Virus record (IMG/VR): IMGVR_UViG_3300017747_000841
Location: 1 to 50,059 of that record
Length of the DNA stretch: 50,059 nt
Strand: one strand, 5' to 3'
From: a virus
Taxonomy: Duplodnaviria; Caudoviricetes
The notes under the pieces were generated by a model that worked only from the letters and a program-made list of their open reading frames with translations, was not told the origin of the DNA and searched no databases. The first letter of the stretch is position 1, and the number at the start of each line of letters is the position of its first letter. The position numbers and the translations under genes are program-made. Below, one piece after another: positions 2,487 to 24,000 of this stretch.

Positions 2487-2677
2487 TGAAGGCTACGCTT
2501 CACAAGTCTTGCCATTGCCGTATGTGCAACATGGGCAGGACCGCCGATAAACGCAACGCTAATGAAAGGAAATTCAGACGCTCAGCAAAGCGTAGGATCT
2601 TAGACTTCCTGCGGCACAACGACTTCAGGAATCACGACGTATTTCTGTACCCCATCTCTAGCCCGTACACCGACTGA
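2486..2677 (+). CDS. Basic hypothetical protein with CHCRMC motif
   Basis: TGATG coupling; Arg/Lys rich. Confidence 0.6.
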   Translation: MKATLHKSCHCRMCNMGRTADKRNANERKFRRSAKRRILDFLRHNDFRNHDVFLYPISSPYTD

Positions 2678-2688
2678 AAGGAACCACT

Positions 2689-2925
2689 ATGAAATCCGAA
2701 ATCCGAGGCGAGGACACGCCCGATGCAATTAAGTTCTTGCACCACGAGATCATGATTTTGCTGTCCGACTACGAACCTCAGATTGTTCTGAGTGTTCTCT
2801 ACACGATCATCGCAAAGCTGACCGTGGTTCTGGAGATCAGCAAAGAGGACTACATGAAGGCACTAGGTTCAGCCTATGACGCTTTCGTGCTGCTCGCAGC
2901 AGATTCAGAAGGGGGCGTCCAGTAG
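2689..2925 (+). CDS. Hypothetical protein
   Basis: AAGGA RBS; full ORF. Confidence 0.7.
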   Translation: MKSEIRGEDTPDAIKFLHHEIMILLSDYEPQIVLSVLYTIIAKLTVVLEISKEDYMKALGSAYDAFVLLAADSEGGVQ

Positions 2926-2974
2926 GAAAAACCCTAACTAAAAAAGTCTCAAGAAAGTTTGATAAACCCATCTC

Positions 2975-2997
2975 TATATGTCAAATCATGGTATACT
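2975..2997 (+). promoter_or_regulatory. Putative promoter P2 (TATATGTCAA box plus TGGTATACT extended -10)
   Basis: Second copy of the P1 motif, in the AT-rich gap before the 3073 operon. Confidence 0.7.
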
Positions 2998-3072
2998 TAT
3001 AGAGTGGTAGAGCAAATTTTTCTAGTCGTTCAGTTCAACAACAGTCTTGACCCTGAAGAAAGGAACTCAGTC

Positions 3073-4020: not shown

Positions 4021-4045
4021 ACCACTCACTAACTGGAGAAGCAAC

Positions 4046-5179: not shown

Positions 5180-5212
5180 GCAACTCTCTAACCAACTGCA
5201 AGGAGAAGCAAC

Positions 5213-6526: not shown

Positions 6527-6544
6527 GTCGTGAGGAGCAGATCA

Positions 6545-7612: not shown

Positions 7613-8549
7613 TTACTTACTCGGTCGTCGCCTCACCGAAGAGGCAGAGCGTAGCCTCTTGAGTAACCCCGCCATGCCATTGATGCGTGAGCTTAACTTC
7701 AAGTTCGGCCTGAAGATATGGCGGCTTTCATCTAGTCGAAATATCATCCACATGGCGCACCCCAGCGGCATGGCTGTGTGCAATATATGGCATGACGGAG
7801 AGAAGTTCCACTACTACTCGCCGTTCTTTAAGAAGTCTAGAGGCTCTGACCAGACGGACAAGTCAACGCTCTCAGGCAAGACCGTGGGGTTGGTAACTGG
7901 CCTCATTAAGAAATACAACGCTCTTGCTACTGAAGAACTATTGACAGCACATCACATGAATGCGCTGGCTTCGAGCAGACGCATGGTGGACAACTCTGTC
8001 AAGTATCAAGGCAAGCAGGTCAGGGACAAGGACTATGACGTGGTTCATGCGCTGCTCGAACGAGCAGTAGGGGAAAACCCCAATGGACCGCGCTACGATC
8101 TTGATGTACAAGAATGCAAGCGACTGTTGGAAGAGTTCGATGCTACTGACGTAGCCCGTAAGCTACAGAAAGAACGCACGGATGAGATCTACAAGTCTCC
8201 TCTGTGGGCTATCGGTGTCTATCACGGTTCTAGTAGAGCGATTGTCGGGAAGATCTTGCCTAAACCAACCGAAGTTAATTTCAATCACTTCGAGGTGCTT
8301 CAGCCCTTTCAATTAGTCTTTAATCTAGATGAGCTGATGGAGAAGTTCCCTGAGCTTACGCCTACCATCTTGATGACCAAGGTCAAGAGCGAGCAAGAGA
8401 ACAGAGGAAGTGAACGTATGTGTGGCTTCTTTAATTTCGGAGACCACTACGACGAGACCATCCCGTATGTGACCTACTACTTCCGAATGGACGACTTCAA
8501 TTGCTGTTGGTACTTCACCCCTGCTGCTAAGGAACCCACGAATGAGTAA
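7605..8549 (+). CDS. Hypothetical protein
   Basis: AAGGAG RBS before ATG 7605; long ORF. Confidence 0.8.
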   Translation: MSNYLLGRRLTEEAERSLLSNPAMPLMRELNFKFGLKIWRLSSSRNIIHMAHPSGMAVCNIWHDGEKFHYYSPFFKKSRGSDQTDKSTLSGKTVGLVTGLIKKYNALATEELLTAHHMNALASSRRMVDNSVKYQGKQVRDKDYDVVHALLERAVGENPNGPRYDLDVQECKRLLEEFDATDVARKLQKERTDEIYKSPLWAIGVYHGSSRAIVGKILPKPTEVNFNHFEVLQPFQLVFNLDELMEKFPELTPTILMTKVKSEQENRGSERMCGFFNFGDHYDETIPYVTYYFRMDDFNCCWYFTPAAKEPTNE

Positions 8550-9108
8550 TAACTCCGGCGACTACATAACGGAGATGGCTCTGTCAGCCGCTCTTAAGAA
8601 TATGGCGAGAGAAATCAGAGGGAACACAAACAACGAAGAAGATCCACATCTCTTTGCGCACATGACGCGAACGTCAGGGCAGTTGACGCCAATCTCACAT
8701 CCAACGCTTGAGGGCATGTATCGAGTAGTGATGATGCGGCAACCGTTCCCGACCATGAAGTATGTGATGTTCGTAGGCGATGGGTTTGTGAGAGTCTTTA
8801 ACGACGAGACGCTACCGGATGACTTGCGATTCAAGATGATGGCAATCGACACCTACGCTGAAGGACATAACAGGAATGCCCCGCCTGACTTCATTCACAC
8901 CGTACCGCCGCCGCTCAACGAGGTCTACAAGAACTCACTAGGCGAGGCGATGGATGACATCGGGTGGCGCTCTCACGAGTACTACTGCTTCGTGATGTCT
9001 TATGAAGAACTGCTGGCCTATCGCGGAGGTGATAACGGTACGCCCATCGCGGAGTACAAATTTGTCACAGCACACAACAAGGAAGCTAGAACCAGAAGCC
9101 GACTATGA
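8542..9108 (+). CDS. Hypothetical protein
   Basis: AAGGA RBS; coupled ORF. Confidence 0.8.
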   Translation: MSNNSGDYITEMALSAALKNMAREIRGNTNNEEDPHLFAHMTRTSGQLTPISHPTLEGMYRVVMMRQPFPTMKYVMFVGDGFVRVFNDETLPDDLRFKMMAIDTYAEGHNRNAPPDFIHTVPPPLNEVYKNSLGEAMDDIGWRSHEYYCFVMSYEELLAYRGGDNGTPIAEYKFVTAHNKEARTRSRL

Positions 9109-9392
9109 GTACACCAGAAAACAAAGTCAAAGAGAAGGTGAGGAAGATCCTCAATGAGTTTAGCGCGTACTACGTCATGCCTGTGACGGGCGGGTACGGT
9201 AACTCCGGTGCGCCTGACTTCATTGTTTGTCATAACGGAAGGTTTTACGGCATCGAGTGCAAAGCCGGAAAGGGAGTAGCCACAGCACTACAACACATGA
9301 ACCTTCGCCGCATCGTTGAGTGTGGCGGCATCGCAATGATTATCAACGAGAACAACATCGAAGAAGTAAGACGACACATGGAGAAACCATGA
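9105..9392 (+). CDS. VRR-NUC family nuclease (putative Holliday-junction resolvase)
   Basis: PENKVK...GAPDF...GIECKAGKG...LQ pattern. Confidence 0.85.
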   Translation: MSTPENKVKEKVRKILNEFSAYYVMPVTGGYGNSGAPDFIVCHNGRFYGIECKAGKGVATALQHMNLRRIVECGGIAMIINENNIEEVRRHMEKP

Positions 9393-9577
9393 AAGACAGA
9401 GAAGGAGAGATCATGGTGGGCGACCCACCGTACCCATTCGTGTGGACTTCACACGGAGATGCACAGAAGGTCTGGCGGCGCTACGGCTGGAGACCGCCTA
9501 CTGAGTATCGAGATGACTACATGTTCAAACACAACCGCGACATTGCTCAAACCACCACGGAGAATCTAAATGGATAA
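9389..9577 (+). CDS. Hypothetical protein
   Basis: GGAGA RBS before ATG 9389; ATGA overlap. Confidence 0.6.
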   Translation: MKDREGEIMVGDPPYPFVWTSHGDAQKVWRRYGWRPPTEYRDDYMFKHNRDIAQTTTENLNG

Positions 9578-10181
9578 CGTAACCATCACCATCGACCCCG
9601 CAAAACCGATCAGGTCTTTGTCGTACAAAACGATCTACAAGATCAAGAAGCTTATTAAGATCATCAAGGACAAGCCGGATGTCACCAACAACGAGCTGAT
9701 GAAGATCTTTAAGCTTAAGCATTCGTCGATATGGCGTTTGCGTCAGCTAGCTGTTGAGTATAGGTATGCGACGCGGGAAGAGATCTATCCGACCAAGTTC
9801 CATGTTGAGACACCCAAGGTGGTAGAGCCTGTCATTGATATCTCTGAGTGGCTTAAAGGTTTGCCGGATGAAGAGGTTAAGCCTGTGCTTCAGACTCAGA
9901 CCACGACGACTGAACTTGATACGCTGCTCGACACGAGGCACAGCACCTACGGTACTTTCATGGGTCAGGCCGCGCTCTCTCAAGCTATCAAGAAAGTCAT
10001 CAACGAGCGTCTTAAGGGTAAAGACCACAAGTTCGAGCCAGATCAACTGGAAGCTCTGTCCATGATCGCGCACAAGATCGCAAGGGTGGTGAACGGTGAT
10101 CCCGACTACGTTGATTCGTGGCGTGACATTGCGGGCTATGCGCAGCTTGTCGCTGATCGTCTGGAAGGTCGAGTACGTTAA
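9570..10181 (+). CDS. HTH plus DUF6378-like domain protein
   Basis: C-terminal RxxxYG...KIAR...GDPDYVDSWRDIAGYAQL; N-terminal HTH-like segment. Confidence 0.7.
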   Translation: MDNVTITIDPAKPIRSLSYKTIYKIKKLIKIIKDKPDVTNNELMKIFKLKHSSIWRLRQLAVEYRYATREEIYPTKFHVETPKVVEPVIDISEWLKGLPDEEVKPVLQTQTTTTELDTLLDTRHSTYGTFMGQAALSQAIKKVINERLKGKDHKFEPDQLEALSMIAHKIARVVNGDPDYVDSWRDIAGYAQLVADRLEGRVR

Positions 10182-10564
10182 TGACTGATGACGACAACGC
10201 GCAGAACAAAGCGTGTAGGTCTTTATTGGCTACGGTGGTATTACTCGCCGTAGCCGATTCATGTATCAGACCGCCAAAGCCGGTCAAGGGTGAGCGCCCG
10301 AAGATTCCGATGGCGACTGAGGCATTTACTGCTATGCGTTTTTTGTTTGATGAGACTTTGCCGGGACTGAACGAGTATGCGACATGGCTGGACATGGAGC
10401 CTAGCCATTTTCGTATGAAGCTATTGGAGACGATGAGAAGTGAATCACCGAGCATCATCAATGGCTACGACCCGTCAGACCGACGAGCCTTCCGTTACAA
10501 CTACGGAGTTTGGTATCGCCTGAAGAACCAATACGACGTACAGCAAGAGGAGGAAGAAGAATGA
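10181..10564 (+). CDS. Hypothetical protein
   Basis: TAATG coupling; full ORF. Confidence 0.75.
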   Translation: MTDDDNAQNKACRSLLATVVLLAVADSCIRPPKPVKGERPKIPMATEAFTAMRFLFDETLPGLNEYATWLDMEPSHFRMKLLETMRSESPSIINGYDPSDRRAFRYNYGVWYRLKNQYDVQQEEEEE

Positions 10565-10758
10565 GTTTGCCTTATGACGTAGCGCGATGTCACGGCCTCA
10601 AGTGGGGCAATGAGAAAACCGGGAAGCCCATGCCTCCCTGTGAAAAGTGCCAGCGCAGACTACAGATTGCGATTGATCCACCCACTATTGATCGAGTTGT
10701 CTACACATGGCCCCCTCAGTTTGAGAACGGCGTCTGCCAGATCCGGATAGGAGTGTGA
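10561..10758 (+). CDS. Small Cys-containing hypothetical protein
   Basis: GAGGAGG RBS before ATG 10561; DVARC...CEKCQR...C. Confidence 0.65.
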   Translation: MSLPYDVARCHGLKWGNEKTGKPMPPCEKCQRRLQIAIDPPTIDRVVYTWPPQFENGVCQIRIGV

Positions 10759-10759
10759 G

Positions 10760-10987
10760 ATGAGCGCACTGAAACCCGTAGACATTCCAAACCAATACAA
10801 AGAATCCGCACAAGAAGCGCTGCAAGATGTGATGGACGAGAACCCAGACACGGTGATCATTCTGTCGTTCTGGAAAGATCGCGGTCAGTTCAAGATCAAA
10901 ACGTCGATGGTGTCTGATCGGCTGATGTTGATTGGTGCGATAGAGGAAGCCAAGGCGAAGGTCATTTCGGATGGGTACGCGCCATGA
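10760..10987 (+). CDS. Hypothetical protein
   Basis: AGGAG RBS. Confidence 0.7.
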   Translation: MSALKPVDIPNQYKESAQEALQDVMDENPDTVIILSFWKDRGQFKIKTSMVSDRLMLIGAIEEAKAKVISDGYAP

Positions 10988-11058
10988 GTGGGTTCGAGGA
11001 AGGATATGAAGAAGGCGGCAGTGCCTACACTCAGCTCCGTGATTTGGGGTAATACCTG

Positions 11059-11487
11059 ATGCTATGCCCTAAGTGCCAAGGTGAAACACGCAGCAAGAAC
11101 AAAGGCTGTGTGAGACACCGGACATGCCGCGCATGCGGCCATGAGTTTACGACCATCGAAGTAATCAAAGAACCAGAAATGAATACGAAACAGAAGCTTG
11201 AGAAGTTCATGCAGTCCCGCAAGAAAACCGTTGACACCGCGACCTTAGCCGCATACTTCATGGTCAACGTCACCACAATCAATCATGCAATGGGAGAGCT
11301 AGAGCGTGAAGGAAAAATCACAAGGACGAAAGCCAAGAACGGGAAAAACATCTGGCAATGGAACTACGATGTGGCCCTTCCCAAGCCACCCGCTCCAGTA
11401 CGACCCCGTATTGAACCCGCCCCCCGTATCGGACCGCCAACCAAAGCAACGCAAAGCTACCCCCACATTCGCGGCTATGATGACTGA
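11059..11487 (+). CDS. NrdR-like Zn-ribbon fused to a winged-HTH domain
   Basis: CPKC...RTCRACGHEFTTIE, then TATLAAYFMVNVTTINHAMGELEREGKI. Confidence 0.65.
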   Translation: MLCPKCQGETRSKNKGCVRHRTCRACGHEFTTIEVIKEPEMNTKQKLEKFMQSRKKTVDTATLAAYFMVNVTTINHAMGELEREGKITRTKAKNGKNIWQWNYDVALPKPPAPVRPRIEPAPRIGPPTKATQSYPHIRGYDD

Positions 11488-11509
11488 GGTAGGGGAGGCT
11501 ACGTTATGA
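11369..11509 (+). CDS. Possible overlapping 46-aa protein (MWPFP...EATL)
   Basis: Alternative frame; its stop overlaps the polymerase start (ATGA). Confidence 0.4.
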   Translation: MWPFPSHPLQYDPVLNPPPVSDRQPKQRKATPTFAAMMTEVGEATL

Positions 11510-13392
11510 ATATCATCACACTAGACTTCGAGACTTACTACGATGGAAAAATCGGTCTCGGATTTAAGACTCAGACAACAGAGGAATACATCCGTGACTC
11601 ACGCTTTGAGGTGGTCGGTGTAGGTGTAAAGGTCGGTGCCGGAGAGAGCGTGTGGGTAACAGAGAACATTAAAGAATATCTAATAGATCTACCTTGGGAT
11701 AGGTCGATGCTTCTCTGTCACAACACGCTGTTCGATGGCGCTATTCTGTCGTGGATATACGGGGTCAACCCATCATTCATGCTCGATACGCTGGGCATGG
11801 CCCGCGCTCTTCATGGTGTAGACGCAGGAGGGTCACTCGCTGCGCTGGCTGACCGTTATAGGATCGGAGAGAAGGGTGATGAGGTTATTCGTGCAGAGGG
11901 TAAACGCCAACAAGATTTCACTCCACAAGAGCTAGAAGCTTATGGACGGTATTGCCGGAACGACGTTGAGCTAACCTACACGCTGTTTCATATCTTGGCT
12001 AAAAGATTCCCAGCAGATGAGTTCGCACTCATCGACATGACGTTGCGGATGTACACGCAGCCGGTACTCGAAATAGATGACGCAATGCTCAACGCTCGAC
12101 TGGAAGAGCTTGGCCAAGAAAAGAAACTTCTGTTGTCTGGTCTGATGGGTGCTATGTCCTGCAACTCTGAGGAAGAGGTAAGGAAAAAGCTCGCTAGTAA
12201 TAAGCAGTTCGCAGCGGTGCTGGAGGAGCACGGGGTTGACCCTCCGTTAAAGGTAAGCGCTACGACGGGTAAGCCTACGTTTGCACTAGCCAAGACTGAC
12301 GAGGGGTTCATCGCTCTGCAAGAGCACCCGAACCCGGTCATACAACAACTGTGCGCTGTCCGTCTTGGTACTAAGTCTACGATTGAGGAGTCTCGCATAC
12401 AGAGATTCATCGACATGGGCGCTAGGAACAGGGGCAAGATCCCTGTGCCGCTGAAGTACTACGGGGCGCACACGGGCAGGTGGGCGGGGATGGACAAGGT
12501 GAACTTCCAGAACTTGCCGAGCCGTGACAAGAAGAAGAAAACGCTGAAGAACGCCATCGTCGCGCCAGAGGGCTACAGCATCATCAACGCTGACTCATCG
12601 CAGATCGAGGCGCGGGTGCTCGCGTGGCTGGCAGGGCAAGAAGATGTCGTGTCGCAGTTCAGCAGGGGCGAGGATGTGTATTCGATCTTTGCGTCAAAGG
12701 TCTACAGGCGCACGATCACTAAAGATGATCCGGTCGAGCGGTTCGTCGGTAAGACTTGCGTTCTCGGTCTTGGCTATGGGACTGGAGCATTAAAGCTAAG
12801 GCACACGCTGGCTACCACCCCACCAAAGGTTATGTTCACGGACGATCAGGCAAAGAGTCTTGTGGATCTATACCGGCATGTCAACCACAACATCACCTAT
12901 CTGTGGAAGATGGCAGATCGGCTCATCAAGGACTTGATAGGCTGGGACCCAGAGAGCGAAGCCTACTACTTTGGGGAGCATCGCTGTGTGCTGATAGACC
13001 GGCAGAGCATCCGTCTGCCTAATGGGCTCTACATCAGATATCCCAATCTCGAATCTAACAACACGAACGGCTACAGATATAAATCCCGCAAAGGATCAGT
13101 CGATATCTGGGGTGGCATGGTGGTGGAGAATGTGGTGCAAGCCCTAGCTAAGATCATCGTGGGTGAGCAGATGCTTCGCATACAGATGCGCTACCCCGTA
13201 GCCATGACCGTGCATGATGCGGCTGTACTGGTTGTGCGAGACGAAGAGCTAGAGGAGGCCAAGGCTTACGTCGCGGAGTGTATGTCTACACCACCTGACT
13301 GGGCGCAAATGAAAGACGGAGGTGGCGTGTGGATGCGGCTACCGATCACCTGTGAGGTGAAGTCGGCTAAGCGCTATGGTGAGTGCGGATAA
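11506..13392 (+). CDS. polA: DNA polymerase family A with 3'-5' exonuclease domain
   Basis: Exo I DFETY, HNxxFD, HTGR, NFQNLP, motif A DSSQIEAR, motif B RFVGKTCVLGLGYG, motif C TVHD. Confidence 0.95.
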   Translation: MNIITLDFETYYDGKIGLGFKTQTTEEYIRDSRFEVVGVGVKVGAGESVWVTENIKEYLIDLPWDRSMLLCHNTLFDGAILSWIYGVNPSFMLDTLGMARALHGVDAGGSLAALADRYRIGEKGDEVIRAEGKRQQDFTPQELEAYGRYCRNDVELTYTLFHILAKRFPADEFALIDMTLRMYTQPVLEIDDAMLNARLEELGQEKKLLLSGLMGAMSCNSEEEVRKKLASNKQFAAVLEEHGVDPPLKVSATTGKPTFALAKTDEGFIALQEHPNPVIQQLCAVRLGTKSTIEESRIQRFIDMGARNRGKIPVPLKYYGAHTGRWAGMDKVNFQNLPSRDKKKKTLKNAIVAPEGYSIINADSSQIEARVLAWLAGQEDVVSQFSRGEDVYSIFASKVYRRTITKDDPVERFVGKTCVLGLGYGTGALKLRHTLATTPPKVMFTDDQAKSLVDLYRHVNHNITYLWKMADRLIKDLIGWDPESEAYYFGEHRCVLIDRQSIRLPNGLYIRYPNLESNNTNGYRYKSRKGSVDIWGGMVVENVVQALAKIIVGEQMLRIQMRYPVAMTVHDAAVLVVRDEELEEAKAYVAECMSTPPDWAQMKDGGGVWMRLPITCEVKSAKRYGECG

Positions 13393-13430
13393 AGGGTGCT
13401 ACCATAGGTAAACCATAACGAGGCTTATCT

Positions 13431-14093
13431 ATGTACACATGGTCTTACTCCGCGCTGAAAGATTACGTCAACTGTCCACGTCAATATAGTGAGGTCAAGG
13501 TACTCAAGAACTTCACCAAGTCGATGACGCAGCAGATCCTCTATGGCCAAGAGGTTCATAAAGCGTTAGAAGATTATGTCCGTGAGGGTAAACCCTTACT
13601 AGAGAACTACAAACAGTACAAAGAGATTCTTGATTGTTTGATGGAGATTCCCGGTGTCCGCTATCCCGAGCACGAGATGGCGCTGACTGTAGACAAGACG
13701 CCCTGCGGGTTCCATGATAAGAATCGCTGGGTACGGGGGATTGCTGATCTGTTGATAATTGATGAAGAGGATAAGCTGGCGTACATCGTGGACTACAAGA
13801 CCGGGAGCAACCGTTACCCAGACACTAAGCAGTTGAAGCTGATGGCTCTGATGACGTTTGCGCACTTCCCGAACGTAGACACCGTGAAGGCTGGCCTTCT
13901 CTTTATTGTTAAGAATAGCTTCGTAGATGAGATCTACAAACGAGAAGAGATTCCTAAGCTGTGGGCTGCATTCGAGCCTGACCTCATGCGTCTGGAAGAG
14001 TCGTACAAAAACGATGTATGGAACCCAAAATCAACGCCGCTGTGTGGCTGGTGCCCCGTCAATACCTGTGAATACCATAGAGGAAACCGATGA
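13431..14093 (+). CDS. Cas4/RecB-like PD-(D/E)XK exonuclease
   Basis: SYS..CP, G..VH, GIAD, DYKTG, QLxL and C-terminal CGWCPxxxC (four-Cys Fe-S pattern). Confidence 0.88.
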   Translation: MYTWSYSALKDYVNCPRQYSEVKVLKNFTKSMTQQILYGQEVHKALEDYVREGKPLLENYKQYKEILDCLMEIPGVRYPEHEMALTVDKTPCGFHDKNRWVRGIADLLIIDEEDKLAYIVDYKTGSNRYPDTKQLKLMALMTFAHFPNVDTVKAGLLFIVKNSFVDEIYKREEIPKLWAAFEPDLMRLEESYKNDVWNPKSTPLCGWCPVNTCEYHRGNR

Positions 14094-14314
14094 AGGACGA
14101 TGCTTTGATTGATTACTCCAACCCCATCCTGAACATCCAGAGCAGGGTGCGAAAAACTAATGACGCGCTGCTTGCTAAGCGCTATGATGAGGCACTTGAC
14201 ACCCTACTCAACATCGTGGCAGATACCCGTGCAGCGTACATAGCTGTCCGGTATCTAAAGGAACAGGAACATGCCCTACGTCAACAAGCCCCGTCCATAC
14301 AAGAAAGAGTATAA
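14090..14314 (+). CDS. Hypothetical helical protein
   Basis: GAGGA RBS; ATGA overlap. Confidence 0.65.
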   Translation: MKDDALIDYSNPILNIQSRVRKTNDALLAKRYDEALDTLLNIVADTRAAYIAVRYLKEQEHALRQQAPSIQERV

Positions 14315-14525
14315 GCAGCAGGTCGCTCGCGGTGAGCATGAGAACCGCATGGAACGGCAACGCGCTAGGCGTACTCTGGATGAGAAAGGTGTTGATCGAG
14401 AGGGCAAAGACATCGCGCATGTCAAAGCGCTCAGCAAGGGTGGCTCTAACAAAGATGGCTACAAGTTGCAGTCACCTAGTAAGAATCGGTCGTTCCCTCG
14501 GAAGTCTGATGGTTCGATGAAGTAA
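14271..14525 (+). CDS. Small basic HNH-like endonuclease
   Basis: KDIAHVKALSKGGSN...NRS resembles the minimal HNH motif DxxHxxPLSKGG...N. Confidence 0.7.
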   Translation: MPYVNKPRPYKKEYKQQVARGEHENRMERQRARRTLDEKGVDREGKDIAHVKALSKGGSNKDGYKLQSPSKNRSFPRKSDGSMK

Positions 14526-14531
14526 GTCAAA

Positions 14532-14675
14532 AGGCAGTCTACTGTTAGGCGTGAGTGAGTAGGCTGTTTAGTCTGTTGCAGGGGGGTTCGTTCATTTCCT
14601 CCCACCTAACCACGTCAGCTAGAAAGCACTTTACTTCTCCGGTGCGGTTCTAGCCGACTAGCCCCCGTAAGGGGC
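14532..14675 (+). ncRNA. Candidate structured RNA (four hairpins plus pseudoknot pairings)
   Basis: Stems 14532-43/14558-69, 14581-86/14598-603, 14614-30/14641-58 and a GTAA-loop hairpin 14661-75; loop-to-linker complementarity. Confidence 0.6.
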
Positions 14676-14705
14676 GTCGTTTTCATTCAGTACATTGAGG
14701 GCAAC

Positions 14706-16268
14706 ATGCAGATAGTCGATAACGTCGCACTAAAATTTGTCGTCTCTAAAGACGATAGCAAATACATACAGCGCCACATTGAACGTTGTGAAGTTCTGCG
14801 TGAGAACGACAGACACGCTGAGCTGCTTGTCTATTGGGGGTTAAGAGAAGCACAGCTCCTATCTAGAGTCCTTGGTGATGTAGTTCCCTCACCGATGGAA
14901 CGAGACTATGACTGGCCGGGGATGTACACCCCCTTCAAGCATCAGCGCACCACCGCATCGTTCTTGACCATGAGGGATCGTGGGTTCTGCTTCAACGAGG
15001 CAGGGACAGGCAAGACTTCTTCTGTGGTCTGGGCTGCTGACTATCTGATGAAACAAGGGCTGGTCAAGCGTGTCTTGGTCATCTGCCCGCTCTCGATCAT
15101 GCACACCGCATGGCGCTCTGATGTGTTCAATACAGCGATGCACAGAACTGTCGCTGTGGCGCATGGCGCTACAGAGAAGCGCAAGAAAATTATCAACGGA
15201 ACCTACGAGTTCGTCATCATCAACTATGACGGGGTGGGAACGGTAGAGGACGAGATCGCAAAGGTAGGGTTTGACCTAATTGTCGTCGATGAAGCAAACG
15301 CATATAAAACACCTTCGACGAAGCGATGGAAAACCTTGAACCGTATTCTTAAACCGTCAACGCGCTTATGGATGCTGACCGGCACACCTGCCTCTCAGTC
15401 TCCAGTCGATGCTTATGGGCTGGCTAAGCTGGTGTCGCCAAACAACGTGCCCAAGTACCAGACAACGTGGAGGGATTCAGTCATGTACCAAGTGTCTAGA
15501 TTTAAGTACCTACCCAAACCTAACGCAAAGAAGATAGTGCATGACGCGCTACAACCCGCGATTAGGTTTGAGAAACGTCAATGCCTTGATCTGCCTGACA
15601 TCGTGCATCAGACAAGGGAGATACCGCTGTCACCGCAAGTTGCTCGCTACTACAAGCAAATCAAAGAACAGATGCTAGTCGAGGCGGCTGGGGAGACGAT
15701 CACCGCAGCCAACGCCGCAGTCGTGCTCAGTAAGTTGCTCCAGATTTCAGGGGGCGCAGTCTATACCGACAAGAAGGAAGTCTTAGAGTTCGATGCCACG
15801 CCACGTTTCAACGCGCTGTATGAAGTCATTGAAGAGACAGAGAACAAAGTAATCATCTTCGTCCCCTACACGCACACCATCCAGTTAGTAAGTAGTTTCC
15901 TATCCAGTAAAGGAGTCACAAATGAAGTAATCAACGGCGAAGTATCAGCAGGTAAGCGGGCTGACATCATCAACCGCTTTCAGTCCCAAGAGAACCCCCG
16001 AGTCCTAGTGATTCAACCACAAGCTGCATCACATGGTGTGACGTTGACCGCTGCCGATACGGTGGTGTTCTGGTCCCCCGTGATGAGTGTAGAAACGTAT
16101 CTACAATGTATAGCCCGCATCGACCGTGTTGGTCAGAAGAACAACATGCTGGTCGTACATCTGCAAGGTTCGGAAGTGGAGCGAAAGCTCTACAAGATGC
16201 TCCAGACCAAGGTTGATCTCCATGCAGGACTAGTCGATCTGTACAAACAGGAGATGGGAATTGAGTGA
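14706..16268 (+). CDS. SNF2-family (SF2) helicase
   Basis: GTGKT, DEA, LTGTP, HGVTLT, QCIARIDRVGQ motifs. Confidence 0.93.
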   Translation: MQIVDNVALKFVVSKDDSKYIQRHIERCEVLRENDRHAELLVYWGLREAQLLSRVLGDVVPSPMERDYDWPGMYTPFKHQRTTASFLTMRDRGFCFNEAGTGKTSSVVWAADYLMKQGLVKRVLVICPLSIMHTAWRSDVFNTAMHRTVAVAHGATEKRKKIINGTYEFVIINYDGVGTVEDEIAKVGFDLIVVDEANAYKTPSTKRWKTLNRILKPSTRLWMLTGTPASQSPVDAYGLAKLVSPNNVPKYQTTWRDSVMYQVSRFKYLPKPNAKKIVHDALQPAIRFEKRQCLDLPDIVHQTREIPLSPQVARYYKQIKEQMLVEAAGETITAANAAVVLSKLLQISGGAVYTDKKEVLEFDATPRFNALYEVIEETENKVIIFVPYTHTIQLVSSFLSSKGVTNEVINGEVSAGKRADIINRFQSQENPRVLVIQPQAASHGVTLTAADTVVFWSPVMSVETYLQCIARIDRVGQKNNMLVVHLQGSEVERKLYKMLQTKVDLHAGLVDLYKQEMGIE

Positions 16269-16668
16269 TTTCACCCTAGAAGATATGGTCAAGTCTTACT
16301 TGACAATCAGGGCCGAACGTGAAAGACTGGCCCACGATTTCGAGGCGGCTGATGAGGCGCTGAAGCAGGATCAAGAAGTCCTGAAGCAAGCCATGCTAGG
16401 CGTCTGCAACGAGACGAATGCCTCCAGCATCAAGACAGGGCAAGGCACGGTAATCAGGAAGTTGAACGAGCGGTACTTCTGCAACGATTGGGATCCGTTT
16501 CGTACTTTTCTGGTTAATAACGATGCTATTGATCTGCTTGAGCGTCGTATCCACCAAGGTAACTTTAAGCAGTACATGGCCGACCGGCTTGAGAAAGATG
16601 GTCTGCCGCCCGGAGTAAACGTCATGCGTGAGTTTGACGTAGTTGTTCGTAAGCCCACATCAAAGTAA
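16261..16668 (+). CDS. Conserved phage replication-module coiled-coil protein
   Basis: N-terminal coiled coil, SIKTGQGT, DW...LLERRI, LPPG; TTG start with GGAG RBS. Confidence 0.7.
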   Translation: MSDFTLEDMVKSYLTIRAERERLAHDFEAADEALKQDQEVLKQAMLGVCNETNASSIKTGQGTVIRKLNERYFCNDWDPFRTFLVNNDAIDLLERRIHQGNFKQYMADRLEKDGLPPGVNVMREFDVVVRKPTSK

Positions 16669-16679
16669 AGAGGAAAACC

Positions 16680-17549
16680 ATGAGTAACGATCTAGTCACC
16701 CTGCTGTCGCAAGACCCCACGCTGGCGCAAACCGGCCTCGATGAAGATACCCTTGCCGTCTCCGGTGGTAGGGGTGGTACAAAGCGCATCTCTATCAAGG
16801 GTAGCGTGTTCCGTAAGTATGCAGGTGGTAAGGAAGTCGGCAAGATCGAAGATCGGTCGATGAACATCATCTTCGTAAAGATGGCGCACAAACCTTCACG
16901 CATGTTCTATGACAAGGGCTATAAAGAAGGCGAGCGGGTCAGTCCTGCTTGTTGGTCTAGTAACTCTGAAGTGCCTGATGCTGAGGTCAAGAACCCGGCG
17001 GCGCTCACCTGCGCCACCTGCCCTAACAGCGTGAAAGGCTCTAGCGATAACGGTACGTCTACCCGCTGCAAGTTGTCGTGGCGTACTGCTGTCGTTCTGC
17101 CGAACGATCCCTCTGGGGATGTGATGCAGTTGGTTCTTCCCGCTACGTCGAGCTTCGGCAAAGAGGACAACGGCAAGTTCCCGTTCCGTCCGTACATCCA
17201 GCATCTCGCATCACACAACGTCAGCGCAGGTCGTGTCATCACTAAGATGTCTTTTGATACGAACGCCCCCACGCCGAAGGTTGTGTTCAGCGTCCATGCA
17301 CGTACGCCGGATGAGGATCTCGCAGTTATCGCTCGTCAGTCGAAGAGCCCCGCAGCAGAAGCCGCCATCAAGATGAACGTGTATCAGGCAGATGCTCAGG
17401 AGACTGAGAAGATCGAGCCGATTGCTGAGGATGTGATCGAGGACGTTCCGCAACCGACTAAGCGCGAAGCATCACCATCGTTCAGCGCTTCCGATAACAA
17501 GGAAGTGGACATGAGCAACGTGATGAAGAAGTGGGCGCGTAAGTCGTAA
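16680..17549 (+). CDS. Putative ssDNA-binding/annealing protein with Zn-binding Cys
   Basis: RISIKG, PACWS...CATCP...C, acidic flexible C-terminus; position in the replication module; function inferred. Confidence 0.55.
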   Translation: MSNDLVTLLSQDPTLAQTGLDEDTLAVSGGRGGTKRISIKGSVFRKYAGGKEVGKIEDRSMNIIFVKMAHKPSRMFYDKGYKEGERVSPACWSSNSEVPDAEVKNPAALTCATCPNSVKGSSDNGTSTRCKLSWRTAVVLPNDPSGDVMQLVLPATSSFGKEDNGKFPFRPYIQHLASHNVSAGRVITKMSFDTNAPTPKVVFSVHARTPDEDLAVIARQSKSPAAEAAIKMNVYQADAQETEKIEPIAEDVIEDVPQPTKREASPSFSASDNKEVDMSNVMKKWARKS

Positions 17550-17551
17550 TG

Positions 17552-17584
17552 GTCAGGGTGGGGCCAGTGTTGGCCCCGCCCGAC
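17552..17584 (+). other. GC-rich intergenic hairpin without U-tract
   Basis: GGGTGGGGCCA-GTGT-TGGCCCCGCCC, extendable with GTC/GAC. Confidence 0.6.
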
Positions 17585-17599
17585 ACAGAGGAGAAAAAT

Positions 17600-17917
17600 G
17601 TGTCACGTCCCTACAGTGTCCAATTCATATCAGAGCTTAAGAAGTGCGACCCAGACATCCCCGGCATCGCTCTCGGCATGGCTTGCGTTAACGCAAACCT
17701 TCCTGCAAAGTATGTGGCTCTCGCCCTTGGCGTGTCGCGCATGACCGTATTCAGTTGGTTTCGTGGCAAGCCTATCCGCATCAAGAACCTGCACAAAGTA
17801 GAAGTCTTTACCGATCTGGTAGAGAGCGACACCGCGAAAGGCATTCTTCCTGCAAAGACAAAGGCCGCTGCGAAAGCCTATCTGGAGGAGATGGTAAACC
17901 GACCTCTTGAGGCTTGA
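17600..17917 (+). CDS. Cro/XRE-like HTH DNA-binding protein
   Basis: VALALGVSRMTVFSWFRG; GAGGAG RBS before GTG 17600. Confidence 0.8.
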   Translation: MSRPYSVQFISELKKCDPDIPGIALGMACVNANLPAKYVALALGVSRMTVFSWFRGKPIRIKNLHKVEVFTDLVESDTAKGILPAKTKAAAKAYLEEMVNRPLEA

Positions 17918-17928
17918 TCCCCATCAAC

Positions 17929-17952
17929 AAGGCGAGGCAACTCGCCTTTTTT
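17929..17952 (+). terminator. Intrinsic terminator
   Basis: AAGGCGAG-GCAA-CTCGCCTT followed by a T run. Confidence 0.75.
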
Positions 17953-17965
17953 GACCTTTACACCA

Positions 17966-20845
17966 ATGGTAAAACAATTCTATGAGAAAGCCCTGCCGAA
18001 GAGTGGTGTGTACTGTGTTGCTGAGCTTGATAGGAGCAAGCCTAGTGACAAGCAACTGCGCCATCACTTTGCGGATAGCCTAGATGAAGTAATCACAATC
18101 ACGGAGAAGTTGAAGGCAACAGGTAAGTTAGATGTGTATGTAGCTATGGGCACGTTCTCTGGCTACTCACGAAGCGCTAAGTCATGTGTCTACCATAAGT
18201 CGTTCTTTGTCGATCTCGATGTTGGGGAAGATAAAGTCAAGACGAACACAGGCTATGCAACCAAGCAAGAAGCACTCGAAGCGCTTAATAAGTTCATCGC
18301 TGATGCTGATCTGCCGCCGCCGTACAAGGTGGATTCTGGTGTAGGCATTCATGCGTACTGGATCTTTGACGAGGAAATCCCCGCAGATCAGTTCTTGCCG
18401 TATGCGGTGCTGTTCAAGAAGCTGTGCCTTGAGCATCTGAAGTCTGATCCAGTTGCTACTCCTGCTGACCTCGCGCGAATCATGCGCTGGGTAGGTTCGA
18501 CAAACTACAAGCCAACTCCACCGGCTGCTGTGACGGTGCTTGATGACACGCTGATCGAGTATTCGTTCGACGCATTCAAAGAGTTTTTGGGTGAACCGGA
18601 AGAAGAACCCAAGGCTGTCCTCGCTGCTGTATCGAAGGGGCTCGATGAAGATACCAAGGCGATCCTCAAGCTGGACAACTTCAAGCGCACGTTCCAGCAC
18701 CTAGCAGAGAAGAGTTTGACCACAGACGAGGGCTGCGCTCAGATCAAGCACATCCTCACTAACTCAGCTACCTTGGCCGAACCTCTGTGGTGGGCTGGTC
18801 TGTCTATAGCGAAGTTCTGTGATGACGGTCCAGAAGCAATTCATCTAATGTCTGAGGATTACCCAAACTATAGCTATGAAGATACAGAACAGAAGGCAAG
18901 TCGCATTTCTGCTCCAAAGACCTGTAATTGGTTCATCAACAATAACCCCAGCGAGTGCGACAAGTGCCCGCATCGAGGAACCGTCACCACCCCCATCGTC
19001 CTTGCCAGAGAACTTAAAACCTCAGCGCAATTTACCGTCGCGTCAGATTCGTCGGACCCAATTCGGCAAGACACGAATCCCGAAGAGATTTTTACTCTCC
19101 CAGACTTCATGACGAATTTTCGCCGTGGCGAAAGAGGAGGCATCTACTACATACCACCACCGACGACTACCAAGAATGGGCAGAAGAGACAAGACCCACC
19201 CATCCTGCTGATTCCGTATGACATGTACGCGATCCGCAGAATCTACAGCAAGCATGATGGTGAGTGCTTGGTTCTACGCATCGTGTTGCCCAAAGACCCG
19301 CTACGCGAAGTTCTCATGCCGATGAAAACGGTGTACTCGGTAGAGATGTTCAAGGGCTTCATGTCATCAAACGGCGTATTCGTCGCCACACACCACGTAC
19401 CGTATCTCATGGAATACATCATCAAGTGGGGGCAATACCTCCAATCAAAGAACAAGGCAGAAAACATGCGCATGCAGATGGGCTGGACCGCTGATCCCCA
19501 CGATACCGAAGAGTGGGATAAGAAAAGTTTTGTCATTGGCAACATCGAGATAAGTCCGAGTGGGGAAGAGATAGAAACGCCGTCGTCACCTTTCGTGCGG
19601 GGTATCGCTAAACTCATGCACAAAGCAGGTACGTATGAGGCGTGGCGTGAAAGCGCTAACTTCTTAAACACTCCGGGGTTCGAGCTACACGCGATGGCTA
19701 TGCTGTGTGGGTTTGCGTCCCCATTGATGTCGTATACGTCAACTTCAGGCATCAGCATTTGCCTTCATGGACTCTCTGGTAGTGCCAAGACCGGCGCGAT
19801 GTACGCAGGGCTAAGCGCATTCGGACACCCCAAAGACCTGAGCGTGATGGAAAGCACAGAGAACGGTCTGACAGGTCGCTACCTTGGTCTGCATAACTTG
19901 ATGTTCGGCCTTGATGAGATATCGAACAAAGACCCGAAGCTACTGTCGCAGTTGATTCACAAAGTCTCTCACGGAAAGACAAAGATCAGGATGCAGGCGT
20001 CTGTCAATGCTGAACGTGAGCACGAGATGTCGGCGTCACTCATCTGCTTGATGACTACTAATCAATCAGCGATCAGCAAGCTGGAGTCGTTCAAGGTCAA
20101 CCCTGACGGTGAGGCCGCGCGGCTCATAGAGTTTATGGTGACTGAGCATGACCTGCTGAAGAATGTAGAGGGCGCTAAGTTAGGTATGCGTGTGTTCGAC
20201 GCCTTCAACTACAACTACGGTCACGCTGGGCCGATGTTCATCAAAGAAGTGCTCAAGCTTGGCGACCCCGCCATGCGTAAGCTGATAGAGAAGTGGTACA
20301 CGAAGATCCTGAAAGATTTCGGCGGTGGCGCACCCTACCGTTATCACCATAACTACATGTCCGTGCTCGGCGCAGCGGGAGAACTCGCAGCAGAGAAAAA
20401 CATCATCACGCTAGACATTGATCGTGTGTATCACGAAGTCACAGCGCACCTAATCATGATTAGAGATAAGGTAGTGAAGATCAACCGATCTGACTACTCC
20501 GCGTTGCTCGGTGACTACGTTAATAAACACATCAACAACTTCCTTGTCATCAAGAACGGTGCGGTCACGATGGAGCCACGAGGTTCTATCATCGGAAGAA
20601 TCGTAAGTGACGAAGGCACGATGCAGATCTCTAAGACGGAGTTGAAGAAGTACCTCAACGAGCTTGGCGTCAGCGGTCGTGAGTTTGAGTTCGAGATGAA
20701 GGCAAGAGGATTGCTGATCGACGATAAGAAGGGGAGGCTGACTACAGGTTGGAAGTCAGCGATCCAAGTAGACCCCGCTTATCTGTATTGGTTCAAGACC
20801 GAAGTACCTGACGAGCTTATTGATGGCACCGAATCAGATACTTGA
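17966..20845 (+). CDS. Primase-helicase (AEP/RepB-like primase, Cys-rich domain, DUF927-type helicase)
   Basis: FVDLD, SGVGIHAYW, CxxCPH cluster, Walker A GLSGSAKT, Walker B GLDE, TTN. Confidence 0.85.
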   Translation: MVKQFYEKALPKSGVYCVAELDRSKPSDKQLRHHFADSLDEVITITEKLKATGKLDVYVAMGTFSGYSRSAKSCVYHKSFFVDLDVGEDKVKTNTGYATKQEALEALNKFIADADLPPPYKVDSGVGIHAYWIFDEEIPADQFLPYAVLFKKLCLEHLKSDPVATPADLARIMRWVGSTNYKPTPPAAVTVLDDTLIEYSFDAFKEFLGEPEEEPKAVLAAVSKGLDEDTKAILKLDNFKRTFQHLAEKSLTTDEGCAQIKHILTNSATLAEPLWWAGLSIAKFCDDGPEAIHLMSEDYPNYSYEDTEQKASRISAPKTCNWFINNNPSECDKCPHRGTVTTPIVLARELKTSAQFTVASDSSDPIRQDTNPEEIFTLPDFMTNFRRGERGGIYYIPPPTTTKNGQKRQDPPILLIPYDMYAIRRIYSKHDGECLVLRIVLPKDPLREVLMPMKTVYSVEMFKGFMSSNGVFVATHHVPYLMEYIIKWGQYLQSKNKAENMRMQMGWTADPHDTEEWDKKSFVIGNIEISPSGEEIETPSSPFVRGIAKLMHKAGTYEAWRESANFLNTPGFELHAMAMLCGFASPLMSYTSTSGISICLHGLSGSAKTGAMYAGLSAFGHPKDLSVMESTENGLTGRYLGLHNLMFGLDEISNKDPKLLSQLIHKVSHGKTKIRMQASVNAEREHEMSASLICLMTTNQSAISKLESFKVNPDGEAARLIEFMVTEHDLLKNVEGAKLGMRVFDAFNYNYGHAGPMFIKEVLKLGDPAMRKLIEKWYTKILKDFGGGAPYRYHHNYMSVLGAAGELAAEKNIITLDIDRVYHEVTAHLIMIRDKVVKINRSDYSALLGDYVNKHINNFLVIKNGAVTMEPRGSIIGRIVSDEGTMQISKTELKKYLNELGVSGREFEFEMKARGLLIDDKKGRLTTGWKSAIQVDPAYLYWFKTEVPDELIDGTESDT

Positions 20846-21029
20846 ACCTGAGTGGGTTTTTCCTTTCCAATGGATGCAGATCGGGGATAGCTTCTTCGTC
20901 CCTACTCTGCGTCCTGCGGAAATGATCTACACGATTGACTCCGGCGCAAAACGCGCCGGTATCCGAGTCAAGTGTTACGTCACGCACAAGGACAAACACT
21001 TGGGCGTTCGCGTATGGAGAATCCGTTAG
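20823..21029 (+). CDS. Small conserved phage protein, putative DNA-binding
   Basis: PF..MxIGDSFFVP...GVRVWR motif; last gene of the + arm. Confidence 0.7.
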   Translation: MAPNQILEPEWVFPFQWMQIGDSFFVPTLRPAEMIYTIDSGAKRAGIRVKCYVTHKDKHLGVRVWRIR

Positions 21030-24000
21030 GGTTCTACGCCGTAGGCTTTGAACGTCTCGATCATCCGGCGCTTAATGATGTTCTGCTGGAGAGTCAGAGT
21101 GTCGAGCCACGCTTTACGATCACCTTGCGACAGCTCACTCATGCGGCGCACTTCGTTTGCTCGCTGCCGTAGCTGGTTGAGTTCCCCACCAACCTGTGAG
21201 TTGTACATCTGCACGATGGTCTCATCGAGCGGGTTCTCTGCACGGTAGCGAGCCGCGATCTCGGGCTTCATCTGCTGCGTGTCGAACATCTTGAGGATGC
21301 GCTCTTTCTCTTGAATCTTACGTTCGATAGCGGTGAACTCACGCGAGTCCACATTGGACCGCGCCCCGAAGAACGAACCCATGAGCGGTAGGTCAGTCTT
21401 GGGGTTGAATCCCTTCGCGCCGCTGCCCAACGCATAGATACCAGTTAGCCCCTCAGCTATACGGAACGGACCATCCATGTAGCTGTTAGCCAAGAAGTAC
21501 AGCGAGTTCGGGCTGATATCAAACTTACCGTTGCTCTTCTCTGCAAAGTATGCAGAGGCATCCTTATACATCTCGGGGATCTTGTCACCCGCCGTGTATG
21601 CGTCGCCCATCCTGCGGTTGCGGTCGTTGTAGATGTCCTGACCAAGACCGTTCTTGTTGAGCGCAAACTCTAGCAGAGGACGGACCGCGCTAGGTGCCAC
21701 AGAGTCAAGCACGAACTCAAGCGGCATTTCTTTGACCGGCATACGAGAGACAGGGATGGGGATGAACGAGTCCAGCGAGATCTGCGTAAAGATGTTCGCC
21801 ATCGCATCGCCAAGAGACTGCCCGGACCCCGCCACCACAGACATCATCTGGGCACCCGACGCTGCGAACGCACCCAGACCGAAGCCCCACGGCATCTGAA
21901 GAATCACAGGCTCCTGAATGCCCATCGCACGAGTGATACTCCTCGGGATGTGGAACCGCGCAAAGCGAGTCCATTGCTGCATGTTATCCGTAGCTACAGC
22001 ATTGCGCCCAAGCTCATCGTCGTCTGAAGTCATCAACGCCATCAAGTAAGCAACAGCGCCAAGCGCGGTCAGACCTGTCGCCATGATCCGAGCATTCTTC
22101 TGACGCTCTTTGAAGTTCTTGATAAACGTCTCTCTAGCCGCCGCATTACCCTTGATGGACTCAGGCAACGAATCAACAAGCGCGTCAATGTTGAAAGTAA
22201 ACGCAGGAGCAATTGCCTCAATTGCACGCACAGCGCCCGTTGCCGCAGGTCTGATAAACATATAGAGAGCGCCGAGACCACGACCAAGATCACCAACCTG
22301 CTCAAAGTTGGCGAGGTTCTTCACGTAGGCTGCTGCTTCCTGATTGACTTCGAGCATCTGCTCTGGTGTAGCGGTAGCTTCAGTAAGTCCACGCTTGGTC
22401 AAGGTGTTCTGCCTGACAACAGCAAACGCAGCCGAGCGGCTGGCGATCTCGAACATGTCGTTCCAGATGTCGAGGAACTGTTCGAGCTGCTCCTTCTTCT
22501 TCATGATGCCCGAGCGTCCGATCTCTTTGTGCAGACGCTGGAAGTTAGACTTCAGAGAGATGCCCTGAATGTAGGACACCATGCCGCCAGTCTCGATGTA
22601 ATCGAGCATGTCTCTAATATAAGAGTCTTTAGCGGCAAGCTGATTAAGTTGCGCTCTATCTTCTGCCTTACCCGTGCCGTAGAGCGTTGCTACGCGCATC
22701 GCCTTGTAGAGACCATTACCTGCAACTACACGAGTAGAAACTTCTCTGAGGAAGGCAGCAGCTTTAGCTGGCCCCATATCCGCACCGATGGTGAACGCAT
22801 TGGTCAGCGCATCGCGCACGAAGTTAAGAGGCGCAAACTGATAGTTGTACCGAGTATGGAGCTGACCCAATCCGCTAGTGATGTTGTTAGCGATATCAAC
22901 CAGAGGATTAGTGTCGTCGTATGTACGCCTGATAGCGTGCAGCATCACATCGTCATCAATGACAAGGACATCAATTGAACCATCAGGGTTGTGGTGCAAG
23001 AGGGTTTTCTCTGCCTTGGCTTTTTGTAGCTCTTCGTTATTTCGGTCAGTAAACGGAATGTGAGCTTTCACATAGCCTTTGATAAGGCCGGTGCCGTTGG
23101 GATTCTTTTCCGGGTCGTTCTTCAGCGAATTCTTAATCGCAAGCGATACATCAACAGATCCAGCACGCATGGCGCTGCGCACGGAATCAGCTACTAGCTG
23201 CAAAACCGGGTTGTTAGATACCGAGGCGCGGCCATACATCTTGAAGTCGATGTCTTGGTGCTCTTTACCGCGAATCCTCTCGTAGTCAAGCTTTTCTTCG
23301 ATGATCTCTTGGTATGAGTTCTTGGGAGCCTTACCCTTCTCTAGACCCTTCATCGGCACGTAGTGCTTCCAGTCATAGAAGTTGGCGTAGTTATTGACGG
23401 GCGGCGTCCAATGGTTACCTAGCTTATTAAGTTCTTTAGTAGCGTCCCTGATGTCACCCATGATCTTGAGCACATCGTCAATCTTTTCTTTCTGAGGATG
23501 CTTCTCGTAGTCCTCTCTATTCTTAGCCATAGCTTCAGGAGAGTTAGATGTGACTACGTAGGCTTCGCTATTTATGTCGGTGGAGAACTCAGCGACTTCC
23601 CCTTTTTTATTCTTACGCGGGTTACCTTCAGAGTCGAGACTAGCAACCGTATACCCACGCGAATCTACGTTCTTGGTCAGGTTACTTTCACTTGTGTCTA
23701 GGATAAGTCCCGTTTTGGGATCTTTAGCCGTGTTCTTAAAGACAATCCCATCAAGCTCATTGCGCAGCGCAAGCGCTTGCTGCTTGGTTAGGTTAGGCGT
23801 CCCTTCCAACAGTTTAATGATGTCGTTACGGCGATCAGCAGGGCTGATGCGCGTGCCGTTGATCTGAAGCGTTTGCTCTGTAGTAAGCGGCACCATCATC
23901 AGATACTTAATCATCCGGCGCTCAGGCTCGTGCAGACTCTCGCTGAGTATGTGCATAAACGTAAGCGTGTCGTCTGTATTCTTACCGGTTGCTTTGGCTA

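Follow-up and report, generated by a model that had tools for sequence, protein, structure and literature searches.

A pseudoknotted, probably cis-acting RNA ahead of a phage helicase gene that appears to be a divergent full-length form of Proteo-phage-1

Proteo-phage-1 (RF03044), which we take to be an orphan RNA family of unknown function originating from a 2017 motif survey, is typed 'Gene; sRNA' in Rfam. RNAs of the HEARO/OMEGA systems are obligately linked to an IscB-type nuclease. RNA-only antiterminators (put of HK022, EAR of Bacillus and RARE of E. coli) provide a precedent for folded nascent RNA altering read-through within an operon, as far as the accessible text of PMC8632103 describes them, and in T4 the gp32 protein loads on a pseudoknot behind which, before the SSB gene, come more than 40 nt of UUAAA repeats without structure (accessible text of PMC535899). 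Supplementary Table 3 of PMC10690425 further contains ten candidates located upstream of SNF2 genes (DNAVirus_1070, 1244, 1473, 1549, 1587, 1790, 3769, 4067, 755, and 8695) that come from the same data source (IMG/VR) and precede the same kind of gene as the RNA considered here; on a comparison by description only, these ten may overlap it.

The stretch of DNA analysed here (hereafter the window, 50,059 nucleotides) looks like a phage genome, and a structured RNA lies within the gap of 180 nt (14526-14705) that separates an 84-aa ORF from an SNF2 helicase gene. The surrounding replication module encodes DNA polymerase A, a PD-(D/E)XK exonuclease and a DUF927 protein and, as the initial annotation had noticed, this is its sole large gap (confirmed between 11059 and 20845). 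The helicase gene is the first behind the RNA and starts 30 nt after the last hairpin (P4). Three separate observations on the window are a depletion of sigma-70-like promoter matches in 1-13000 (2 vs 10.4 ± 3.5 in shuffles), an ATPase-like ORF followed by a DUF2201 metallopeptidase/vWA protein (3935-6526), and a 2488-aa ORF on the minus strand (21026-28492) with an Ala/Pro/Glu-rich middle, probably a virion protein. The features of the locus are as follows.

14271..14525, + strand: gene of a small HNH-type protein (84 aa), the upstream neighbour; its stop codon lies 6 nt before P1
14532..14685, + strand: whole structured RNA (P1, pseudoknot, P2, P3, linker, P4, U-rich tail), from model R1 and covariation
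14532..14569, + strand: P1 (14532-43/14558-69), top pair U14545-G14557, G14544 bulged
14547..14556, + strand: P1 loop core, with A14547, the pseudoknot 5' strand (14548-53) and R-G-U (14554-56)
14581..14603, + strand: P2, an optional and variable hairpin as seen in relatives
14608..14617, + strand: conserved AAC (14608-10), pseudoknot 3' strand (14611-16) and A14617
14618..14654, + strand: P3, with an outer helix (14618-24/14648-54), an internal loop and an inner helix (14626-30/14641-45)
14631-40, + strand: P3 loop, pyrimidine-rich and anti-Shine-Dalgarno-like, by enrichment of anti-SD tetramers
14655..14660, + strand: linker CGWCUR, single-stranded and conserved; part of the search pattern, yet found in protein-retrieved loci too
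14661..14675, + strand: P4, terminal hairpin with a CGNNA loop, swapped for other hairpins or absent in some relatives
14676..14685, + strand: U-rich tail; P4 plus tail scores as terminator-like, with enrichment across the family
14697..14701, + strand: GAGGG, likely Shine-Dalgarno site of the helicase gene, able to form 5 pairs (2 of them G-U) with 14635-39
14706..16268, + strand: SNF2-family helicase gene (PF00176, E 4e-23; also PF00271)

Folding energy alone was weak evidence for this RNA, the stretch being mildly unusual (z = -1.99 for 14525-14690; z = -1.55 for 14532-14675, with 17 of 300 shuffles equally good; z = -0.95 for the minus strand), and it is therefore on the covariation of its relatives that we accept the fold as real. 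A scan with the HNH protein recovered 80 loci, many with a conserved motif in the same gap, and a scan with the 3' pattern recovered 120 viral loci out of ca. 420 estimated; together with the window, these gave 82 distinct motifs under a parser that demanded five pseudoknot pairs. Fifty-five representatives were aligned by sequence alone, i.e., the 60 clusters at 75% identity minus 5 that carried long inserts or a shifted register. The 20 proposed pairs are formed in 95.5% of 1100 cells of this alignment, compared to 75.4 ± 0.8% when shuffled and 32-44% in slid controls, and two-sided changes amount to 224 vs 60.1 in shuffled data, counted as sequences and not as independent events. Eleven of the top 14 column pairs by corrected mutual information are proposed pairs, and the other three are located at the P3 inner helix or its internal loop. 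The homologous regions bear out in part the pairing that had been read from the window's letters. As the parser had itself selected for pairing, the analysis was repeated blind to it: 112 distinct 3' modules were collected, 81 with sequence anchors and 65 with unique ones, and in these 65 loci the six pseudoknot positions pair 64, 65, 64, 64, 60, and 53 times, vs 64, 44, 45, 48, 44, and 43 with shuffled partners. A pseudoknot pattern whose R/Y positions were left free retrieved 189 distinct loci, in which the fourth pair is A-U in 89, G-C in 83, G-U in 7 and A-C in 10. A looser scan for pseudoknot variants was discarded, its 120 matches (105 distinct, none with P4) being essentially chance.

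The preference for the plus strand, suggested earlier by G-U pairs in P1, is upheld by the relatives: G-U cells number 86 and A-C cells 1, where the parser permitted G-U for the five pseudoknot pairs and 20 of the G-U cells fall in the unselected P3, and the longest downstream frame lies on the same strand in 68 and on the opposite strand in 10 of 88 motifs (68 of 78 decidable). Given the excess of G-U over A-C and this co-orientation, we consider the element probably a plus-strand RNA. Among sequencing runs, none of RNA was listed for 13400-16300, which counts neither for nor against transcription. A single-stranded DNA structure serving replication or recombination would suit its frequent position beside helicase, primase, SSB and Erf genes, and comparative methods cannot reliably separate ssDNA from RNA (accessible text of PMC5737381). 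However, the co-orientation with transcription in 68 of 78 cases, the U-tract behind the last hairpin and the occurrence in late operons and tRNA leaders argue against DNA, an idea that we find scarcely credible. Sequence comparison points instead to a real, strand-specific, pseudoknotted element, probably RNA and probably cis-acting.

Model R1 has one match only in the window (14538-14678, 86.3 bits, the window being part of its training set), and the relatives correct several details of the fold as initially drawn. All 12 pairs described for P1 are present, three of them G-U; its length differs among relatives and its top pair (U14545-G14557) is formed in 55 of 55 aligned rows. Equally invariant in all 55 rows are the A, G and GU of its loop, letters that also served as parser anchors. 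The initial annotation had both halves of this loop pairing, in swapped order, with one downstream segment, as a double or switchable pseudoknot. Both pairings can form in the window, but only one of them lasts: the CGTG pairing (14550-53/14611-14) is real, as the middle of a 6-bp helix (14548-53/14611-16), whereas the GTTAGG half (14544-49/14605-10) is not conserved, being paired in 43.2% of cells vs 41.3% shuffled, with 4 two-sided changes vs 4.6. What remains is a single H-type pseudoknot, 14548-14553 with 14611-14616, which G14555-C14610 and U14556-A14609, both invariant, may lengthen. P2 (14581-86/14598-603) has all six of its proposed pairs in the window but is optional and variable in the relatives, some of which have a linker of 0-4 nt in its place.

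The hairpin with an internal loop described as P3 is likewise real (its outer helix shows two-sided changes in 6 of 6 pairs and is 97% paired), but it extends over 14618-14654 and not to the outer pairs 14614-16/14656-58, two of which hold in merely 36 and 30 of 55 rows; 14614-16 is part of the pseudoknot 3' strand and in the family follows the P1 loop. An alternative register, joining the P3 5' strand to the linker, was also rejected (middle pairs in 48, 37, 45, and 31 of 55 rows, columns absent from the top covarying pairs). The hairpin P4 exists at 14661-75, with a conserved CGNNA loop above a C-G or A-C pair and not the plain GTAA tetraloop first reported. Its closing pair is G-C or A-U in 82 of 82 parsed full motifs, and its inner pair, at positions that the pattern left free, is C-G or A-C in 119 of 120 viral matches, the same two positions being mixed in the mostly chance matches from cell genomes. 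A 2-bp mini-pseudoknot could further join the CG dinucleotide of the linker (14655-14656) to that of the P4 loop (14666-14667), both unchanged in all 55 rows.

About ten invariant bases, unpaired or weakly paired, cluster at the helix junction, where they could form the active site of a self-cleaving ribozyme or the pocket of a ligand-binding aptamer. The placement between genes and before tRNA arrays would suit processing, and one locus (L220) lies 290 nt from a type II hammerhead. On the other hand, the motif matches no ribozyme or riboswitch family, either in the window or across 40 scanned loci, and the downstream genes have no common metabolic theme. HDV-like ribozymes have a P3/L3/P1.1 core and pistol has a long-range P2, and this fold has neither. 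Overall, we regard catalysis or ligand binding as highly unlikely.

The Rfam scan proposed at the outset returned no match in the window to a known family model at the gathering cut-off (and none to RF03044 at E up to 10), and sub-threshold chance matches alone at the locus and in 20 relatives. The RF03044 cut-off of 42 bits is exceeded by none of five subgroup contigs, and 20 further loci gave two RF03044 matches below it (L220 at 41.4 bits, the other at 26 bits). The 3' half of the RF03044 consensus nevertheless shows the same P1, the A-G(N5) loop strand, RGUG and AAC-N6-AG, and the window has an RF03044-type P1 hairpin with an A-G(N5)...RGUG loop, then AAC-N6-AG. The RF03044 model ends where P3 starts, the window RNA running ca. 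60 nt beyond, and the pseudoknot is missing from the structure line that Rfam prints. Its 5' hairpin (model ca. 7-34) is not in the window, where the end of the HNH coding region stands instead, and many loci with an Rfam-like pseudoknot sequence are likewise without it. Searches of 121 and 120 genomes (one genome unscored) gave nine places above the RF03044 cut-off. Model R2, trained on 27 sequences that all belong to the window's subgroup, matches four of these nine at full length (E 4e-9 to 4e-6) together with all 11 other loci of the Rfam-like subgroup given to it; the remaining five above the cut-off and the P22 and HK97 stretches are unmatched by R2. In addition, R1 alignments of three RF03044 loci continue into P3, the CGWCU linker and the CGNNA hairpin.

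The suggestion of a wholly novel RNA is thus withdrawn: judging by the R2 matches and the shared 3' half, the window RNA appears to be a divergent full-length form of RF03044, from which it differs in the missing 5' hairpin, another pseudoknot sequence, the inserted P2 and the extension of ca. 60 nt. Since it lacks two features, an above-cut-off score and the 5' hairpin, we file it as an RF03044 variant and not as a formal member. The family occurs in phages and prophages, as membership of RF03044 entails. In the literature within reach (most subscription papers were not), we found neither the name Proteo-phage-1, which is absent from the accessible main text of PMC5737381, nor a description of this RNA.

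Our 3' pattern is estimated to occur in ca. 420 viral stretches, and one Rfam-like pseudoknot sequence in ca. 1300 (66 of 114 distinct matches with P1 and P3). In 596 Gb of cell genomes the 3' pattern gave ca. 140 matches vs ca. 139 by chance (our own estimate), 13 of 120 being full motifs. Among laboratory phages, P22, HK022 and HK97 hold likely members, as judged from a model match and sequence similarity: the P22 stretch (40195-40313, just after the rha stop) scores 17.8 bits with R1 (E 1e-4) and does not match R2, and near-identical stretches are found in HK022, HK97 and BTP1. A BLAST search of 5426 complete E. coli genomes with a 181-nt P22 stretch gave matches in 1121, of which 685 cover 80% or more of its length. 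R1 has no match in lambda or D3 and one at E 0.18 only in F116; BLAST against cultured phages gave a single 22-nt match for the window motif and none for that of L165, and Rollin, RHph_TM3_14A, Effie and Xp15 (four checked among the closest helicase matches) gave no match. RNAs of the window type precede helicase genes, DNA polymerase genes and tRNA arrays, and those of the Rfam-like subgroup precede MazG, capsid, holin (lysis) and tRNA genes; the arrays behind the RNA in L087, L091, L107 and L152 are untranslated. In the Salinisphaera genome of L220, the hammerhead ribozyme (1512-1588, type II, 73.4 bits) lies downstream of a full motif.

The 84-aa protein upstream has no Pfam match and no PDB sequence relative. 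All 80 relatives share its H50, N60 and N72, and one cluster among its Atlas feature neighbours (at 0.97) has HNH on 20% of its members, which makes the HNH label reasonable. The RNA had been proposed as a partner of this protein, with a loose resemblance to HEARO/omega RNA, in which case it might serve as a guide. Among the 80 protein-retrieved loci, R1 detects the motif with its pseudoknot in 36, adjacent to the HNH gene in 34 of them, and just P4 in 2; when the RNA is used for retrieval, 89 of 125 subgroup loci show this adjacency. However, 44 of the 80 HNH loci are without the fold, and among four HNH-bearing genomes at least 90% complete (from 35 whole contigs searched, mostly picked for lacking the motif at the junction) three have no motif anywhere and the fourth has a copy 4.4 kb away. 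The RNA also occurs without HNH, after exonuclease, polymerase, helicase, Erf and rha genes, and no variable guide segment is seen at either of its ends. In a quick tree of 55 helicases the motif is the trait of one clade (28 of 31 rows vs 0 of 24 elsewhere), so that the adjacency reflects shared descent. In L080 a gene is inserted after HNH, with the RNA still ca. 30 nt before the helicase; the inserted segment (2812-3874) also carries a promoter-like site. The likeness to HEARO/omega RNAs is limited to an HNH-type gene nearby: here there is no Rfam match, the 84-aa protein has no RuvC domain and the linkage is one of descent. We therefore drop the partnership, to which we give next to no credence; on these comparisons the motif seems to be inherited with the junction, the HNH gene being its neighbour and not its partner.

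The 3' end varies among the 114 subgroup loci whose P1 and P3 are good: the CGNNA module closes 79 of them, a GGAAAGAC hairpin 14 and a G-run hairpin 4, and the remaining 17 have some other ending or none. Conversely, copies of the 3' module that lack the pseudoknot are found ahead of capsid genes, behind SSB genes and in the cultured phages f20-Xaj and S-N03. As the terminal hairpins are exchangeable and the 3' module also stands alone, we define the core as P1, pseudoknot and P3. Several loci illustrate this variation. The hairpin-CGWCUR-CGNNA module without pseudoknot (L098, L104, L144, L093, L130, L196, L459 from f20-Xaj and L461 from S-N03) lies before capsid genes, after SSB genes or behind a strong promoter and may be an element of its own. 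The GGAAAGAC-core hairpin replaces P4 in many loci, among them L053, L501, L513, L615, L705 and L846 (20290-20310) and is also present in P22; no Rfam family was reported for it in the scanned loci. L001 (2566-2592) and L002 have the linker and P4 alone between HNH and helicase, the pseudoknot and most of P3 apparently having been lost, and in L605 (1425-1623) R1 weakly matches twice in a row, perhaps owing to duplication of the motif. In Ralstonia phage RpY1 (L457:2500-2570, MN996301), the pseudoknot and P3 lie inside an unannotated open frame that starts ca. 110 nt upstream behind a promoter-like site, and ribosomes may run through the fold. Finally, phi297 (L456:2500-2540) and vB_Pae_CF63a (L460:2500-2540), both temperate phages of Pseudomonas, have the pseudoknot module with no clear P3 near repressor or replication genes, with compensatory differences between the two copies.

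The P3 interior is enriched in anti-SD tetramers (107 of 132 vs 56.5 shuffled; 54 of 66 vs 35 in the Rfam-like subgroup), even where no gene follows. This would fit a stand-alone small RNA of ca. 145 nt acting in trans, perhaps through its pyrimidine-rich loop on ribosome-binding sites; it would likely be cut behind the upstream stop codon, or have its own promoter, and be ended at the terminal hairpin. In 26 of 43 clusters no more than 12 nt separate P1 from the upstream stop, 6 of 50 clusters have a sigma-70-like promoter immediately before the RNA vs 0 of 103 control windows, and the U-tract enriched behind P4, the single copy in the window, the unrelated neighbours and the 'Gene; sRNA' type of RF03044 agree with such an RNA. 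Against it, the BTP1 copy lies between rha and pid, yet STnc6000-6070 are placed elsewhere in a supplementary figure of PMC7067206, and the lysogen transcriptome supplement of that paper, in its accessible part, lists no small RNA at the copy site; moreover, the RNAs of L610, L664, L690 and L810 lack a terminal hairpin and continue directly into the ribosome-binding site. An antisense pid transcript has been mapped next to the P22 copy in PMC8835761, whose accessible text does not mention this fold. We consider a trans-acting RNA unlikely.

The same P3 loop could act closer to home, on the downstream Shine-Dalgarno, or a phage protein could bind the pseudoknot, either limiting helicase synthesis, i.e., the control of helicase translation that had initially been suggested. 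In 28 of 43 clusters the distance from P4 to the next start codon is 14-33 nt, and an own-vs-swapped test of Shine-Dalgarno pairing, set beforehand and run on new loci, gave a median p of 0.03 (20 clusters) and 0.01 (51 clusters), with a coding-region control at p 0.86 and matches of 7-8 bp in L734, L772 and L802. This is one of four tests, however, the other three versions being negative (p 0.09; 0.53, 0.73, and 0.19; and 0.43, the last on the Rfam-like subgroup with noisy start calls), and the positive effect amounts to about half a base pair among clusters that are related to one another. A translational operator is also inapplicable before tRNA arrays. The window RNA resembles the T4/RB69 gene 32 operator (PMC535899, accessible text) in that both place a compact pseudoknot ahead of a ribosome-binding site within an operon for phage replication; unlike that operator, it has no unstructured UUAAA tract of more than 40 nt but two further helices between pseudoknot and start, with 30 nt left, the next gene is not SSB, and the RNA also precedes tRNAs. 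We hold translational control to be distinctly unlikely. A recoding pseudoknot (readthrough or frameshift) was rejected, the gap modulo 3 being 6/8/9 and none of 23 loci having a helicase frame that stays open upstream across the RNA.

The single reading that we prefer, while rating it somewhat short of probable, is that the RNA acts in cis on the growing transcript and sets polymerase read-through into the helicase and later replication genes. At least five U within 8 nt after P4 are found in 15 of 43 clusters vs 5.9 in shuffled tails (0 of 2000 shuffles reach this), i.e., about a third of the lineages carry a terminator-like 3' end. Given that a gene start lies within 45 nt of P4 in 30 of the 43 P4-bearing clusters, these would need polymerase to read through, and the RNA is also found ahead of untranslated tRNA arrays, a placement for which translational control offers no explanation. 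It is this terminator-like end in read-through operons, coupled with the place before untranslated RNAs, that makes transcriptional control in cis the best single reading, and the downstream genes being unrelated to one another also counts in its favour, as does L080, where the RNA kept its place before the helicase despite the inserted gene. In such a mechanism the RNA would be transcribed, P4 and the U-tract would work as a weak terminator or pause, and the pseudoknot-P3 core would modulate read-through, as an attenuator or a put/EAR-like antiterminator; a ribosome halted at the upstream stop codon could influence the folding of P1.

Several findings speak against read-through control. By the same U-tract test 28 of 43 clusters have none, 35 of 114 subgroup loci have another terminal hairpin or no hairpin, three of the four near-complete HNH-bearing genomes have no such RNA altogether, and a transcription mechanism leaves the anti-SD-like P3 loop unexplained. 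Clusters 9, 18, 22 and 41 have the RNA at the end of a series of genes, with at most a new promoter close behind, and thus suit a released RNA better. No strong internal terminator that would need suppression was found in 14676-20845, and the short distances to flanking genes may merely reflect genome compaction. A bolder version, which we think rather unlikely, would make the pseudoknot-P3 core a protein-independent antiterminator that binds host RNA polymerase, serving operons for replication, late functions and tRNAs in phages that range from lambdoid coliphages to uncultured freshwater viruses; if true, it would be the most widespread RNA-only antiterminator known. In the window and 40 loci Rfam gave no match to a catalogued put/EAR-type antiterminator family, and put, a double hairpin of ca. 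65 nt (accessible text of PMC8632103), is unlike the window RNA.

These comparisons would provide a complete architecture for an orphan phage RNA, which Rfam models in truncated form and with an entire subgroup left out, and in which a modular core is combined with exchangeable terminal hairpins. Owing to the likely members in HK022, HK97 and P22, its function is directly testable in laboratory phages. If the RNA does control read-through, it would represent an unrecognised layer of regulation in the long-studied late and replication operons of phages.
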